The notes beneath the pieces were generated by a model. It was not told the DNA's origin and did no database searches. It saw only the letters and a program-made list of their open reading frames with translations. Below are positions 4,748 through 10,992 of a stretch of 20,000 nt of DNA, in pieces. Position numbers and translations under genes: made by a program. Where the stretch lies: the IMG/VR virus record IMGVR_UViG_3300005675_000019; one strand, given 5' to 3'. The stretch comes from an uncultured virus (IMG/VR IMGVR_UViG_3300005675_000019). Taxonomy: Duplodnaviria > Heunggongvirae > Uroviricota > Caudoviricetes. How positions within the stretch are numbered: the first letter of the stretch is position 1; each line of letters starts with the position of its first letter.

Positions 4748-5616
4748 GGGTCAATCAACTCAATGATGTCAATCCCGCCACAATCCCTAACTCCTTCGGA
4801 TATAGCAGCCACATCTATCCTGCTGTTAAAGCGGCAAGGCAGATCAAAGTAGCAACCGCCAGAGACTACCTCACCTACTTGGGGTGCCGTATTTACGGCT
4901 CCACCGCTTGTGTAATTGCTATAAGCTATGGTATCTAAATTTATTGTGACTAGCCCACCGATATCCGTGCTGACAACTGTCACACGCTTGTTGTTTATCT
5001 GTGTCATACCAACAACACCAGTTACGTAGATTGATCTTCCAGCAACAAGTGCATTCCCTGGTATAGTAAGTACAGCTTGAACTTCCTTGGTTATATTAGT
5101 GATAGCCCAAGTACCATTGGCTAGAAAAGTAACACGCCCGTTAGTGGTGTCAACCGTAAAGTTAGAGCTATCTAGCTGCACTGCACCAACAGCTACAACA
5201 GTACTCCCAGCCACAGGTTTATACACTTTCCTGTAAGGCAGTCCCAAGGTAATCGGTGTTCCCCCAGAGCCGTAGGCTGTGACTAACTGATACACCCCAG
5301 TAGAGATCAAAGGTAACTGCCAATCTCCTGCAGTTGGTACATTGACGCTGCCATTAGTACTGAAGTCATCCTCGCACCTAACCCTGAATCCAGCATACAT
5401 ACCGTACACTCTACTGTACATGGCCAGTACACCTTGAGCTATCGTGGACCGCCAGTTGGTAAAGTTAATTTGAAAACTACGGACAGGGAAAGGATGAATA
5501 AGCCTGCGATACTCCTTGCCAGATGCTGTGGTCACTATCTGCACAGCGAACTCGTCGTTGTAGGTTGCCCCCATCCTGACATTAACTGGTAGCCTACCCT
5601 CATGAAACTCAGCCAT
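4744..5616 (-). CDS. Distal tail protein (DUF2460-like) with an inserted beta domain
   Basis: Likely start ATG at 5616 (MAEFHEGRLP), overlapping the tape measure stop. Motifs IVTTASGKEYR, GFRVRCEDDF, KVYKPVAGS, VDTTNGRVTF, FDLPCRF. Lies directly after the tape measure gene. Confidence 0.88.
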   Translation of the reverse strand: MAEFHEGRLPVNVRMGATYNDEFAVQIVTTASGKEYRRLIHPFPVRSFQINFTNWRSTIAQGVLAMYSRVYGMYAGFRVRCEDDFSTNGSVNVPTAGDWQLPLISTGVYQLVTAYGSGGTPITLGLPYRKVYKPVAGSTVVAVGAVQLDSSNFTVDTTNGRVTFLANGTWAITNITKEVQAVLTIPGNALVAGRSIYVTGVVGMTQINNKRVTVVSTDIGGLVTINLDTIAYSNYTSGGAVNTAPQVGEVVSGGCYFDLPCRFNSRIDVAAISEGVRDCGGIDIIELIDP

Positions 5617-8600
5617 ATCTGCGTGCTCCATTAAGTGCTGACAAGGCCTCTCGTGCACCTTGTCCAGCGGCCCTTCTCACATCCGGGGCGTTAGTACCAT
5701 TGACGTTGACCGTGATGTTGACCACCTTCGACCCACCAAAGCCCTCAGCCTGCACGCCTAGCCGCCCATAGGAGTCACGCTTCAGGGGCATGACTGCCTC
5801 CGGCCCGGCCTCGGCGAAGATGCCACCCTTGGCGAAGCCATGAAGGTTCTGGAAGGCAAAGGTCTTCGGACTGGTCTGCACCGTGTTGGCGTAGGCGTGC
5901 AGGCTCGGGGAGCCTGAGAAGACGTTGCCTTTGGCGCTGTCAATGAAGCTGGCCGCCAGGTTGGCGAAGTCACCACTGCTGAACCCGCCTCCACCCCCGC
6001 CGAACATCCCGAGGATGCCGTTGACAATGCCGCCGAAGCCTCCCTCGCCCCCGCCGATACTGCTCATGGCCTTGGCAGCCAAAGCCTTGGCCTCGATCTT
6101 GGCGATGTCCAGGATCACGGATTGGGCGAACTTCGCAAAGTTGAGTTTGCCCGTGGTAAGAAACTCGTCCAGTGCGCCCTCAATGGCGCTGGACATCGCT
6201 TGATATGAGTCAGCAGCCTGCTTGGCAGCGTTGGTCGCGTCATCCACGTAGGCCTTGTGGGCCTTCTTCCACCCCGCCACATAGCTCCGCTGAAACTCCT
6301 GGTCCTGCATCTGGGCGGCGGCTTTGGCGTCGATCGCTCCACGCTCAGCCTTTGCAACCTCCGGGTCGACCTGGTTCCTGTCGACACGTCTTTGGAGGTC
6401 CTCAACGGCTCTCAATTGCTCACGCTCGATTCGGAGCTGGGCCACTTCCTGGGCCGTTTTGTCGAGGGCGATCTGCTCGAACTGAAGGTCGTCAATGTAC
6501 CTGCCGGTTGACACGCTCAGGTCGTCAATGGCATTCCTGTTTGCTGTGCGGGCCTTGGTTGTGTCGAGCAGCGCTTGCTGCTGCTGCTTCTCCAGCTTTA
6601 GGGAGTTCTCGGCTAGGTCGTTCAGGAACTTCTCGACCTGGACCTTGTCACCAGCCGCCTTGGCGTCAGCCAGAGAAGCCTCAATGAGCAGGCGCTCGAT
6701 CTCAAGTGATGCCATCGTCGCCTGGTTCTTCTTCTCCGTGGCCACTGTCGTGCTGATGGTCTGGGCAGCGAGGTCGATCTCGATCTCGATCAGCTCACGG
6801 CCAAGCTGAATCTTTTCCTGCTTCAAACCTGATTCAAGGTTATCGTTCAGGATGGAGCGAGCGTCCTTCAGGGCACCACGACCGGAGCCTCCAGCGCCCC
6901 TGCCTTCAGACCCAAGAATCTCCGAGGCCTTGCGTGTCGGCTTCTTCGTTTCTCCGGCCACGGCAGCCTTCAGACCCTCGGAAGCGTTCGAGGCCTTGTA
7001 CTTCTCCCTCTCCAGACCCTCAACTACCTTGCCCCATTTGGCGACTGACTCACGTGCATCGGAGAGAGCGGTGCCCGTAGCCCGGCCCTCAACCCTCAAA
7101 CTGAGCAGCTTCTCAGCCTTGTCCAATTCTTCCTGGGCCTCGCCCAGGTCCCCGACCCCGTACTTCTCCCGGCGAGAAACCTTGTCCAGAGCGGCTGATG
7201 CCCTGACGGCAGCGTCATAGGCCTTGTCACCGGCCCGTGAGGCGTTATTGCCCCAGATAGTCCAGGCGACTGCACCGGCTGCCAACCCCCCAGCAATGAT
7301 CGTGAGAGGTGTTGGGATGGCCATGAGGAGTGAGGGCAAGCCAGCAACAATGGCCTTCATGGACGCCATTGGCCCAAGTGCTGGACCCATGATGCCACTG
7401 GCAATCTGCATGCTCGTGGCAAAGCCCATGACTGCTGTAGAAGTGGCAGTCCAAACAGCAGCGGTGATCATCCCAGCCTTGTACACTACCCAAGCCTGTG
7501 CCAGAGTGATTAAGTGTGGGGCCATCTCTATTACGGCATTGGTCAGCGATGCCATACCCCCGACAATCGACTTCAGATTTTGTAGGAATGCGGGGTCAGC
7601 GAACAACGCCTTGAGGTTGTCTGCTAACTGACTGAAGATGGGCTCCATCTCATTGAAGGCAGTGACTAGCTGGACCTTCATGGTGTTTATTGCTTGAGCC
7701 CACTTACCTTTGGCTGTGTTCTCAAGTTCGGTGGCAACTCCCTCCATGAATCCTTTAGAGTTCTTGATCTCATCACGCAGCTCTATCCACTTGTCTTTGG
7801 TAAGAGCAAGCATGGCAACAGCTTCTTTAGCACCTCTCTCACCAAACAGCCTCTGAAGTATCTCTACCTGGTCTCCCTTACTGAAGTCTGCCAACTTACC
7901 CTTCATATCGAACACCACATCAGCAAAGTTTCTGAGATTGCCCTCAGCATCTTTTGTTTTCAGGCCAAGGTTCTCCATGGCCTTGGCTGACTGTGGTACA
8001 GGGGCGTACAGTTCCTTGAGCATATTGCGGAAGGATGTGCCCGCAGCAGTTCCAGTGATGTTGACTTTTGCAAGCAGCGTGATGGCAGTCGCTGTGTCTT
8101 CGAGGTTTGCGCCATACTGTTCGCCAACAACGGAGGCTGTCTTCATGGCCTCAGTCATACCCTGGACCGAGGTCTGCGACAGGGCAGCCGCCTTGGCGAA
8201 CACGTCCCCCACGCGCTCAGAGTCCTTGACTGTCAGATTGAAGGCTTTCATCACACCAACCAGGGTGACAGCCGCCTGCTCCATCTCCATCTCACCGACC
8301 GTGGCAAGGTTCAATGTCTGTGGCATCGCCTCAAGAGCCTCGGACGCATCAAGGCCTGCCTGAGCCAGTATCCTGAAGCCGCTGGCAATCTCTGTAGGTC
8401 CTCGCAAACCGGTCTGTGAAAGGCCCAGGGCAGCATCAGACAGCTTCTGTACTGCCTCAGCAGACTCACCTCCCAGGGCTTTCACAAAGGTGAGCTGGTA
8501 GGCGAACTCGGAGCCAGCCTTGGCTGCGTTTATGAACGCGCTGCCAATGGTTGCTCCAGCCAGCAGCGGGATGAGTGAGCCGTAAGTGATCCACAACGTC

Positions 8601-9543
8601 CCCAGCGAACCGGCCAAACCCCTCGCCGCCGCATGCCCCTCGTTAGCGACCTTGTTCCAGTGAACCTGGGAGGCGGCGCTTTCTTTGGTGGCAGTGGACA
8701 ACGACTTGTAGGCTGCCTCGGCTGCGACAACACTGCCCCGCGCCTGAGCGGCTGCAAGAGCTTGAGACGACCCCGCAACACCGGGCAACTGCTCCTGTCT
8801 AGCTCCCCCGTAGAAAGCCTTCGCGGCCTGAACAGTAGCAGATGCTCGCTGCTTATCAGTTAGCGCCAGCCATTTGGCCTGAGCCTCCAGCTCTTTGGTT
8901 ATCTGCTTTTCCGCAGCCNNNNNNNNNNNNNNNNNNNNNNNNNNNNNNNNNNNNNNNNNNNNNNNNNNNNNNNNNNNNNNNNNNNNNNNNNNNNNNNNNN
9001 NNNNNNNNNNNNNNNNNNNNNNNNNNNNNNNNNNNNNNNNNNNNNNNNNNNNNNNNNNNNNNNNNNNNNNNNNNNNNCCAGTGCCCTGGCTCTTTCAGAG
9101 GCATTGGTTCCGGCTGCGTTAAGTTCCCGCAGACCCGCCTGTGCCCTAGCCCTTTGCTCGTCACCCCTCAACAATTCGCTATAGACAGCCGCTTGGGCCG
9201 CCTTCAGTCTGTCAAGGTTCTTGATCTGGGCTTCGCCAGCTTTAATGGAGGCAGCCCCGGTCATCTCGGCGCTTCGCAACATGATCTTCATGTTGTTGGC
9301 CATGCCGTCAGACGCCACAGCAGTCTTCGCCTGCAGCGTAGCTACCTGCTTCGTCAGGCTGTCGATCTTTTTGGCGGCGAACTCAGCATCTGCGCCGATC
9401 CCCTCCACGCCCTTGCCGGTCGCGGGTGCCCGCATGACAGCCAGCAGGTCGCCGTACTTTTCCTTGAGTAGTTCGAGATCGGCCTTGGCCTGCCCGGTGT
9501 CAATCCTCAGAGTTAGGGTTGCTGCTGCGTCCGTACCACTCAT
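5609..9543 (-). CDS. Tape measure protein (~1300 aa, spans assembly gap)
   Basis: The N-terminal ORF from 9543 (MSGTDAAATLTLRIDT) and the long ORF ending at 5609 are both open up to the N run. Ala-rich and helical, with a TP901-type core (AGTSFRNML, LFGERG) and lambda-type C-terminus (FLTTGKLNF, FAKGGIFAEAGPEAVMPL). The frame offset across the gap is attributed to inexact gap length. Confidence 0.92.
8919..9077. other. Assembly gap (159 N)
   Basis: Run of N bases seen directly. Confidence 1.
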
Positions 9544-9553
9544 GACCTAACTC

Positions 9554-9850
9554 CTAAGATTTGTGCATCTGCGTTATTGCTGAGGATGACATCACTCGTA
9601 TTGCGCGTAGCGTATCAAGCCTCTCGTCCGTACCCTGGACCTCGAACAGGTCCATGACCTGGAAGACCACGTTGAGGTCCAACCCTACCGGGCCGCCTTG
9701 CTCCATTCGCCACTGGTCCGAAACCTCGCAGAAAATCTCGTAAGGCAGCCAGTTGTCAGGCCACACCTCGAAGTCCGAGGTGTCCATCACGTCTTCCCGC
9801 AACAGGCCGATGGCCTTCAGCTCAGCGTCTGACGGCCCGGAGTCGTACAT
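9554..9850 (-). CDS. Tail assembly chaperone, second ORF (DUF1799-like), probably expressed as a frameshift fusion
   Basis: WPDNW...QWR...GPVGLDL motif. The frame is open back to the slippery site (LVALAAR-MYD). Lies between the chaperone and tape measure genes. Confidence 0.85.
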   Translation of the reverse strand: MYDSGPSDAELKAIGLLREDVMDTSDFEVWPDNWLPYEIFCEVSDQWRMEQGGPVGLDLNVVFQVMDLFEVQGTDERLDTLRAIRVMSSSAITQMHKS

Positions 9851-9877
9851 CCGGGCAGCCAGGGCTACGAGTTTTTT
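9829..9877 (-). other. Programmed -1 ribosomal frameshift signal
   Basis: Minus strand CAA AAA AAC TCG TAG contains heptamer A AAA AAC (9877-9871). An 8-nt spacer is followed by stem-loop CTGGC-t-GCCCGGA / TCCGGGC-c-GTCAG (9862-9829). The -1 frame joins the 9554-9850 ORF. Confidence 0.85.
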
Positions 9878-10185
9878 TGCCGCCCCTCGAACAGGCCCTT
9901 GTTGTAGCCCTCGAAGATGGCACGGGCTGCGGACGGGTAGTTGTCCAGCAGCATGTCCAGGGCGGCAGCATCGAACGGGACATCGACGCCTTCCCAGCCC
10001 TCGACCAGCTCCTGGAGCGCGTCCAGATCGGTGCGGGCGGTCTCGCCATCACCCAGGCTGTCGAAGAAAGCCTTGAGGGCCTTGCGCCCCTTGTGCTTGA
10101 ACACGAACGTGACTGTCGCATCGCCATCGGTGGTCGGGATGGCCACGGGTTGCTTGAAGGTGGGTTTCGGTTGCAGTACAAACAT
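9865..10185 (-). CDS. Tail assembly chaperone (gpG-like)
   Basis: 106 aa, MFVLQPKPTF...LVEGWEG...LLDNYP. GAGG Shine-Dalgarno 7 nt upstream. Follows the major tail protein and ends at a slippery site. Confidence 0.9.
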   Translation of the reverse strand: MFVLQPKPTFKQPVAIPTTDGDATVTFVFKHKGRKALKAFFDSLGDGETARTDLDALQELVEGWEGVDVPFDAAALDMLLDNYPSAARAIFEGYNKGLFEGRQKNS

Positions 10186-10190
10186 GGTAT

Positions 10191-10312
10191 CGCCTCATGT
10201 GATTGGTCCACCTCTAGGTTGGTGCCACTGACCTGTCCGCGAGGCGGGTACGGACACGGATCGCTCCGCTGGTCAGTGGGTTCTGGAGCCGCTAACTGCC
10301 TACAGCTAGCGG
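10191..10312 (-). promoter_or_regulatory. Putative structured cis-regulatory RNA between the major tail protein and chaperone genes
   Basis: Minus strand: a 10-bp hairpin (10312-10289), then a three-way junction with P1 CCACTGACC/GGTCAGTGG, P2 CGGA-GCGA-TCCG (GNRA loop) and P3 TGTCCG/CGGACA. The P3 loop contains CGCCTC, complementary to GAGGCG at the chaperone RBS. Confidence 0.65.
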
Positions 10313-10323
10313 TTATGTCAGGA

Positions 10324-10992
10324 TTACGTCGAGTAGCGCAGCGGCTCGGCGGCGTAGGACAGGCTGATCTGCGTCATCAGGGCCTCGTTCGTGGCCATGG
10401 TCGGCACCTTCAACAGCGACCAGTAGGCGTTCGCAGCCAGCTTCGAGCCATTTGGGAAGGTCATGAGCAGTCCGTAGGGAGCCCGCGCTTCGTCCGCCAC
10501 GCTCACGTCAGCGTACCAGGCCAGGGTCGGATCATCGAACACGTCGATGGTCATGTTGACCGCGTCCTTGATGGTCGGAATCTGGCGCTTGACCGTGTCC
10601 GTGATCGAGGTAATGTCGGCGAACTGCTGCGCACCACCGGAAGCGCTCACGCCCTTGACCTGCGACAGCACGGACCAGGCGGTGATCTTGCGGAAGGTAC
10701 CAGCACCCGCCGAAACACCACCAGCGTACTTGGTCGTGTCAGAGGTATCGACGCCTTCAAGGGTCATGGAGACACCAGCGGCGACCGCTGACACGCGGCA
10801 AACCCGTTGGTCAAGCAGGCCCCAGCCAGACGAGATGACGACATAATCACCAACGGTGGGAGGGGTAGCCGTACTGGCGACTGCCGGGTTGGCATTCGTG
10901 ATGGCGGTGATCGTGGTGCCAGCCAGGGTGAGGACGGGGGAGTAAGTTTTGGCCACAGCCACTGTGGCTCCGGTAGAAAGTGTGATGCTCAT
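10324..10992 (-). CDS. Major tail (tube) protein, Phage_tail_3-like
   Basis: 222 aa, ITAITNANPAV...SSGWGLL...LEGVDTSDT...SASGGAQQF...RQIPT pattern. Lies upstream of the chaperones and tape measure gene. Confidence 0.92.
   Translation of the reverse strand: MSITLSTGATVAVAKTYSPVLTLAGTTITAITNANPAVASTATPPTVGDYVVISSGWGLLDQRVCRVSAVAAGVSMTLEGVDTSDTTKYAGGVSAGAGTFRKITAWSVLSQVKGVSASGGAQQFADITSITDTVKRQIPTIKDAVNMTIDVFDDPTLAWYADVSVADEARAPYGLLMTFPNGSKLAANAYWSLLKVPTMATNEALMTQISLSYAAEPLRYST

Follow-up and report, generated by a model that had tools for sequence, protein, structure and literature searches.

The window, meaning the whole stretch of 20,000 nucleotides that was analysed, encodes on its minus strand a tail tube protein, which is followed downstream by a tail assembly chaperone and further tail genes. 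The spacer between the tube and chaperone genes holds a hairpin (hairpin 1), a three-way junction (3WJ) built from helices P1, P2 and P3, and two short boxes, the second of which lies on the ribosome-binding site (RBS) of the chaperone gene (Table 1). The chaperone gene is presumed to be the regulated gene, and residues M1, F2, P6 and P8 at the N-terminus of its product are invariant (n=14 homologues). The 3' end of this gene reads ...CAA AAA AAC UCG UAG on the minus strand, in which A_AAA_AAC (9871-9877, minus strand) is a canonical -1 slippery heptamer 4 nt ahead of the chaperone stop codon; together with the DUF1799 ORF in the -1 frame, it makes up the usual frameshift pair of G/GT-type tail chaperones. 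A 214-aa ORF (8899-9543, minus strand) with no match in Pfam or PHROG separates the DUF1799 ORF from the tape measure gene, and a 209-aa ORF on the opposite strand overlaps it.

Table 1. Genes and RNA features at the tube/chaperone junction of the window
Feature	Position	Strand	Description and evidence
Tail tube gene (222 aa), upstream neighbour	10324..10992	-	Pfam Phage_tail_3 7.8e-41; PHROG 584 major tail protein 1.7e-56
Tube-to-chaperone spacer, 138 nt	10186..10323	-	
Hairpin 1, after tube stop codon	10289..10312	-	10 bp including one G-U; loop UAGG; no U tract
3WJ, 55 nt	10225..10279	-	MFE fold; covariation; CM R1 107.8 bits
P1	10279-10271/10233-10225	-	9 bp
P2	10269-10265/10260-10256	-	4 bp + closing G-U; loop GCGA 10264-10261
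P3	10255-10251/10239-10235	-	5 bp; 11-nt loop 10250-10240 UACCCGCCUCG
Effector segment of P3 loop	10241..10247	-	CCGCCUC, flush with loop 3' side
Box 1	10208..10214	-	GAGGUGG; 7 bp with loop, one G-U; duplex -12.9 kcal/mol
Box 2, holds chaperone SD (GAGG)	10191..10197	-	UGAGGCG; pairs with loop CGCCUCG; duplex -11.3 kcal/mol
Tail assembly chaperone gene (106 aa), presumed regulated gene	9865..10185	-	Pfam Phage_TAC_4 9.7e-23; AUG 10185-10183
DUF1799 ORF, -1 frame	9554..9850	-	
Tape measure gene	5609..8788	-	

An earlier note, made from the sequence alone, had described a hairpin and a three-way junction on the minus strand of this spacer, and all of the features that it named are found at the positions it gave. 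Both structures are returned by an unconstrained MFE fold of the minus strand (10180-10330), without further guidance. Its energy is -55.7 kcal/mol, where 200 dinucleotide shuffles average -43.1 (z -3.29) and a single one of them is as good. The plus strand reaches -57.8 kcal/mol with a z of -1.48 and 17 of 200 shuffles as good. The argument that a G-U pair works on the mRNA strand alone holds as well, as the G-U pairs of the stems become C-A mismatches on the opposite strand, which supports the mRNA sense. P3, which had been given 6 bp, is present as a stem of 5 bp, the proposed sixth pair (U10256-A10234) competing with the closing G-U of P2. The complementarity of the P3 loop, CGCCUC(G), to the (U)GAGGCG that contains the chaperone Shine-Dalgarno (SD) sequence is likewise present as claimed. 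In addition, the same loop has a second site, box 1, that was absent from the earlier model. This box lies 10 nt past P1 and 22 nt ahead of the AUG, and it needs no start codon of its own; it is separated by a gap of 10 nt from box 2, which ends 5 nt before the chaperone AUG at 10185.

The element does not correspond to any RNA family in the collections searched, and the earlier note had likewise been unable to match it to one. Searches against Rfam matched no family to it, C4 (which we take to be RF01695) included, either in the window (9800-10700, E<=10) or in 14 member loci totalling 37 kb (E<=1). The single hit in this region, a weak Hammerhead_II match (17.9 bits, gathering score 37, E 0.97), lies inside the tube gene at 10363-10436 on the minus strand and is taken as chance. 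ARAGORN reports 0 tRNA or tmRNA genes in 9800-10700, and neither promoter-like nor terminator-like sites were found in the spacer. Hairpin 1 was considered as an intrinsic terminator and rejected; it has no U tract, CUCCAGAA follows the stem, and no terminator was called there. A conserved leader ORF was also considered, since an upstream AUG (10198-10196) is conserved in the close family, and was set aside, as this AUG is in frame in L016, out of frame elsewhere and missing in several classes. Further targets of the loop were sought with the motif GAGGYG, which occurs 21 times in the window against 25.6 expected, with no occurrence at other gene starts and none inside the tube gene on the minus strand. 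The full-text literature that was searched, in which subscription journals are largely outside the scope, describes no such element.

One IMG/VR record matches the window at 100% identity across the 1128 bases compared. A tube-protein search of viral contigs produced 106 relatives, of which 80 were retained. Relatives with tube identities of 69-99% have spacers of 118-139 nt in which the 3WJ is kept and the stem sequences differ. In a MAFFT alignment of 14 close sequences, 97.5% of cells are paired, versus 28-36% when the partners are slid by 1-3 columns; both sides have changed in 8 of the 19 3WJ pairs (three in P1, three in P2 and two in P3), and the covariation score was matched by 0 of 500 shuffles. 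The P3 loop (..CCGCCUC.), the boxes and the SD region show zero variation within this close family, so no covariation between loop and SD is gained there, and the case for covariation between loop and boxes rests on comparisons with more distant classes. Every sequence of this set has the second SD-like motif, which precedes the SD by 8-12 nt and in most of them reads GAGGCG(G/A), and the single-stranded flanks around the fold are rich in A, U and C. At the place of hairpin 1 the close relatives carry a hairpin of unrelated sequence, and in distant members, where the 3WJ begins 5-12 nt after the tube stop codon, hairpin 1 is absent; it is regarded here as a hairpin in its own right at the 3' end of the tube gene.

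A covariance model (CM R1) built from the 14 close sequences recovers 21 members at E<=2e-4, with four other loop classes among them, and it matched no non-member spacer and no second copy in the window. The six members that it misses (L244, L248, L256, L259, L263/L264 and L291) belong to the most distant classes. Among the 21 sequences as aligned by the model, 95% of cells are paired versus 28-37% when slid, and 0 of 500 shuffles reach the score. In the same alignment, which is fitted to the model and is to be read accordingly, both sides have changed in 16 of the 19 3WJ pairs, bearing out the proposed fold, as well as in 4 of 7 pairs between loop and box 1 and 3 of 7 pairs between loop and box 2.

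The pairing of loop and boxes was examined with a pattern that consists of two boxes and a start codon and requires nothing upstream. Among viral contigs this box-only pattern matched 16 stretches, 14 of which are tube/chaperone junctions, all with the loop, and two of which are unrelated. Among metagenome contigs, it matched at least 14 tube/chaperone loci within the 80 loci listed; CGCCUC is found upstream in 14 of these 14 and in 1 of the 66 remaining loci among the matches listed. Two distant relatives, L019 (tube 45%, chaperone 33% identical) and L092 (tube 28%, chaperone 43% identical), both have a 3WJ with entirely different stems, the same loop core and the two boxes. They are without hairpin 1, their 3WJ beginning 11-12 nt after the stop codon, and the architecture is thus kept at a tube identity as low as 28%. 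A search with the chaperone of L092 added 27 loci and one with a chaperone alignment added 38, many of them with the same architecture and other loops; the chaperone of L019 as a query matched only itself.

A scan blind to the 3WJ was then applied to 68 distinct regions of 165 nt upstream of chaperone homologues. It required a hairpin whose stem has 5 bp or more and whose loop has 7-15 nt, followed by two non-overlapping downstream sites that each form at least 6 bp with the loop with at most one G-U, the sites being 3-20 nt apart and the second ending at most 12 nt from the AUG. Under these rules 33 of the 68 regions are positive; the corresponding figures are 53 of 1360 for dinucleotide shuffles and 1 of 68 for reverse complements. 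Leaving out the doubtful L070, we count 32 members. P1 is present in all 32 with 8-13 bp, P3 has 5-8 bp and a loop of 7-13 nt, box 1 follows P1 at 5-10 nt, the boxes are separated by 3-12 nt, and box 2 ends 0-9 nt from the AUG in every member. The P2 hairpin is present in 31 of 32, missing in L248. Its length is free, and its loops of 3-10 nt are unrelated between members: some are GNRA tetraloops (GCGA, GUAA, GCAA, GUGA) and others are AUUG, UUAU, UUU or loops of 5-10 nt. The GNRA loop that the earlier note had singled out is therefore real in the window and not conserved across relatives, and it was dropped as a defining feature. A Phage_tail_3 gene lies upstream in 10 of 10 member loci tested, and in every case the element has a Phage_tail_3 tube gene on one side and a Phage_TAC_4 chaperone gene on the other.

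The 32 distinct member spacers have 8 loop sequences, each complementary to both of its own boxes (Table 2). The effector CCGCCUC, invariant in the close family, is replaced in the other classes by seven other sequences, each with matching boxes. Using class assignments and a class-level matrix that follow our own scripted criteria, both boxes are matched in 8 of 8 cognate and 2 of 56 non-cognate combinations, and at the level of member pairs in 404 of 426 within classes versus 7 of 598 between them. This covariation supports the pairing of the loop with the boxes. Exchanging the loop alone for shuffled loops is a weak control, in which 0.8-24% of shuffled loops still match both boxes, because the boxes are near-repeats and the loops are of low complexity; it was therefore replaced by the shuffles of whole regions and the cross-class matrix. 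Members of the GGCCUGA class have box 2 directly against the AUG and, farther upstream, a distinct AAGGA sequence as SD, so that box 2 has been selected as a partner of the loop and not as an SD alone. Box 2 of the AAAUCGGGG class includes AAAUC, which is not SD-like.

Table 2. Loop classes among the 32 members and the boxes of each class
Loop	Box 1	Box 2
CCGCCUC	GAGGYGG	UGAGGCG
GCGCCUUG	CAGGGCGC	CAAGGCG
CCCCGAUUU	AAAUCGGGG	AAAUCGGGG
GGCCUGA	UCAGGCC	UCAGGCC
UUGGCCCUG	CAGGGCC	AGGGCCA
CCACUCCAG	CUGGGGUGG	UGGAGUG
UCCCACUUCA	UGAAGUGGGA	UGAGGUGG
UCCCCUUG	CAGGGGGA	CAAGGGGA

The pairing segment lies flush with the 3' end of the loop: on this side 0 nt stay unpaired in 28 of 32 members when the partner is box 2, and 0-1 nt in 31 of 32 when it is box 1, and 0-5 nt are left free on the 5' side. 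By the rules of H-type pseudoknots, such an arrangement stacks the new helix on P3 and a short 5' loop crosses the deep groove, and the geometry of loop and boxes fits a stacked pseudoknot of this kind. Calculated as simple duplexes, the pairings of the members range from -9.7 to -17.3 kcal/mol for box 1 and from -9.8 to -13.5 kcal/mol for box 2, and the one loop is unable to cover both boxes at once. The pairing with box 1 is equal to or stronger than that with box 2 in 29 of 32 members, suggesting that the SD is not simply sequestered and instead competes with a decoy. The SD sequestration put forward in the earlier note thus stands insofar as the pairing of loop and SD covaries over 8 classes, and falls short in having omitted box 1.

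Within the relatives of the window, all parts of the element are gained and lost together. Three loci with tubes 75% identical to that of the window (L013, L014 and L034) are without the 3WJ and box 1, and have also lost the part of box 2 that does not belong to the SD (the CG extension). Their 77-nt spacers contain a simple hairpin and a plain GAGG SD, in effect a natural knock-out of the complete element. Other relatives (L035-L040, L051 and L290) carry GC-rich hairpins followed by U runs, resembling intrinsic terminators, at the tube/chaperone junction, and a terminator is annotated at this junction in the record of phage HK639 (L313 855-878). The presence of terminators at the same junction fits selection for lower expression downstream of the tube. 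In the L059-L077 group and L269, a long hairpin 5' arm with its loop (..UCCUUCGCGGGG..) is, by eye, nearly complementary to an AAGGAA SD stretch, and this design may be another way of masking the RBS. The records of Ralstonia phage YO (L309-L311, about 22 kb, labelled 'UNVERIFIED_ORG') encode a chaperone approximately 50% identical to that of the window, which begins 5 nt past the upstream gene and without an RNA element.

All members are contigs derived from metagenomes. A tube-protein scan of genome contigs for a cultivable carrier returned 11 loci, none of them close; CM R1 had no match in 5 genomes, the class-A pattern gave a single, chance-like match in 401 genomes of one order, and the element is absent from the 6 phage records examined, out of 129 deposited with relatives of the chaperone. 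The locus itself is covered by contigs of four metatranscriptome-labelled runs from three studies, a type of contig from which ends, strand, level and small RNA species are not readable. Near-identical relatives (L004, L005 and L191) differ by a C/T variant at 10222, within the stretch that links P1 to box 1. In two runs (X16 and X17) there are contig breaks at 10221/10230, which coincide with this variant and are most simply due to it, and a depth peak at 10148-10309 in a third (X19) includes the contig of a relative similar to L011 (loose end 10259). These runs are taken as giving no evidence on processing.

Taken as a whole, the conserved fold, the single loop complementary to two adjacent boxes and the position of box 2 on the RBS are best read, with a probability of about 0.5, as a cis-acting translational gate, in which the loop either rests on the decoy, box 1, leaving the SD free, or on the SD, blocking it. 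The element would be a regulatory RNA on the late tail mRNA, whose 55-nt 3WJ holds out the P3 loop so that the 3' part of the loop can form a helix of 6-10 bp with either box, stacked on P3 in the manner of an H-type pseudoknot. Pairing with box 2 would cover the SD and the start region and block binding of the 30S subunit; pairing with box 1, the decoy 3-12 nt upstream, would occupy the loop and keep the RBS open. The balance between these two mutually exclusive pseudoknots would set initiation of the chaperone on an mRNA shared with the tube protein, of which far more is made, and translational polarity would probably extend the control to the downstream tail genes. That the pairing controls translation and does so in cis is what we infer, and the element presumably sets chaperone output relative to tube. 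As the loop generally favours box 1, the RBS may be open by default, in which case the SD at equilibrium would be mostly free and net repression small unless the loop is displaced from box 1. A point against the two-box gate is that a bare P3 hairpin would suffice for it, yet P1 and P2 are conserved.

Foremost among the competing explanations, though we regard it as unlikely, is an antisense RNA that is processed like c4 (P1/P7) or CI (P4). Here the 3WJ would be excised from the late transcript, with P1 as a protective terminal stem, and would accumulate, its loop binding the boxes in trans as well as in cis and shutting off the chaperone and the downstream genes, with the 8 loop classes as specificity determinants. 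The architecture does resemble that of c4 (PMC5320573), and the P4 CI segment also pairs with two sites on its own transcript (PMC4825925). Moreover, two boxes are sensible if more than one loop is available, the closed P1 stem of 8-13 bp recurs in 32 of 32 members, and discrete classes with little cross-matching are the pattern of heteroimmune antisense systems. However, the window (E<=10) and the 14 member loci (E<=1) gave no Rfam match to C4, a single loop is complementary to the targets and the P2 loop of 3-10 nt is not conserved, the element sits in a structural operon and not in an immunity region, the spacer has no promoter-like site, and no conserved CCA-like tail follows P1. A constitutive element appears more doubtful still: a fixed pseudoknot of loop and box 1 together with the 3WJ would insulate or enhance the chaperone RBS, or protect the downstream message from nucleases, and the loop would seldom pair with box 2, or to no effect. 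In 29 of 32 members box 1 does indeed pair as strongly as box 2 or more so, and it is also the closer box and the one transcribed first; A/U/C-rich single-stranded flanks surround the fold, and translation of repZ requires a pseudoknot between a loop and an RBS flank (PMC8053102). The difficulty is that in 8 of 8 classes box 2 follows the loop, even in stretches that do not resemble an SD, such as the AAAUC of AAAUCGGGG, and that in one class it abuts the AUG beside a separate SD, which is hard to explain unless pairing with box 2 has been selected.

More speculative, and to be given only a small chance, is a self-titrating riboregulator, in which box 1 would be a decoy of high affinity and box 2 a site of lower affinity. 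The loop of each transcript would at first be absorbed by its own decoy, so that the chaperone is translated; the compact 3WJ would outlive the message, accumulate and later block box 2 of newer transcripts in trans. If true, this would make the element a timer, under which the chaperone, tape measure and tip genes are switched off and tube production goes on; the 8 classes would be orthogonal specificities through which co-infecting relatives are not cross-regulated, and they would form a natural set of orthogonal translational repressors. A riboswitch or protein switch, in which a ligand, the tube or the chaperone binds the 3WJ and decides the choice of box, is improbable. Three-way junctions are common platforms for ligands and proteins, and a two-state design invites an input; the earlier note had allowed for a switch by a protein or ligand. 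On the other hand, the junction has 1-2 unpaired nt and conservation across classes is limited to the pairing loop and the boxes, themselves variable between classes; so few unpaired nucleotides and the lack of conserved bases argue against a ligand pocket and make the suggested ligand switch unlikely. P2 is also free in length and loop and missing in L248, and no riboswitch in Rfam matched. Finally, a chance fold without function is scarcely credible. GC-rich sequence folds readily, as the -57.8 kcal/mol of the plus strand illustrates, but chance is contradicted by the covariation (16 of 19 pairs in the model-fitted alignment, slid controls of 28-37%, 0 of 500 shuffles) and by the persistence of the architecture down to a tube identity of 28%.

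Long-tailed phages require hundreds of tube subunits for every handful of chaperone, tape measure and tip proteins, and produce them from one late transcript. To our knowledge, control of the ratio between tube and chaperone is understood mainly for the frameshift of the chaperone itself. The element reported here represents a genuine and undescribed family of structured RNAs located at the Phage_tail_3/Phage_TAC_4 tube/chaperone junction, and as a translational gate it would be a conserved RNA device placed exactly at this boundary, apparently interchangeable with the terminators of related phages. With one loop and two competing targets, it offers an unusually clean natural case, and its 8 naturally co-varied specificity sets make the mechanism directly testable by class swaps. 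The family is ready for inclusion in Rfam and for the design of synthetic riboregulators. Should the RNA be a processed antisense RNA instead, control of the c4/CI type would extend from immunity regions to structural operons.

Several known systems share parts of this design. The c4 RNA consists of three stem-loops (P1-P3) that are excised by RNase P from the transcript of their target, and one of its loops occludes a downstream RBS (PMC5320573). The element and c4 have in common three helices closed by P1, a location on the same transcript as the target and upstream of it, a loop that pairs with a site covering the RBS together with a second site farther upstream, and sequences of loop and target that differ between relatives with complementarity kept. 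The c4 RNA differs in using two loops (a' and b') for its two sites, whereas one loop serves here and the other is not conserved; in lying in an immunity region and controlling icd/ant, whereas the element stands between the tube and chaperone genes; and in its length of 77 nt as opposed to 55 nt. The element is also without a match to the Rfam C4 model. In the CI RNA of P4, one segment pairs with two sites on its own transcript (PMC4825925), and the element is similar in having one antisense segment and two complementary sites on the same transcript. The CI sites flank the RNA upstream and downstream, and their pairing leads to transcription termination; here both boxes lie downstream within 40 nt, the second is the RBS, and no terminator-like site follows.

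A further parallel is found in the repZ/repA genes of IncI1/IncB plasmids, where a pseudoknot between a hairpin loop and the RBS flank decides translation (PMC8053102). In both cases the partner of the hairpin loop is a short sequence next to the RBS. The repZ pseudoknot activates translation, is opened by translation of a leader peptide and is blocked by a separate antisense RNA, whereas the element has no conserved leader ORF and its competitor is a second box in cis. The intrinsic terminators of related phages occupy the same position and probably serve the same purpose of lowering expression behind the tube, but they act on transcription, and the element has no U tract and targets the RBS. 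Among cis elements that sequester the SD, such as riboswitch platforms and RNA thermometers, an anti-SD similarly masks the SD and an alternative partner frees it. The complementarity of loop and RBS, kept by compensatory change in 8 classes, places the element functionally with these SD-sequestering RNAs; unlike them, its anti-SD is a hairpin loop, its anti-sequestor is an SD-like repeat, and it has no evident sensor domain. The masking of an RBS by a complementary loop is thus the known part of the design, and the unusual part is a single loop with two competing boxes and interchangeable specificities.
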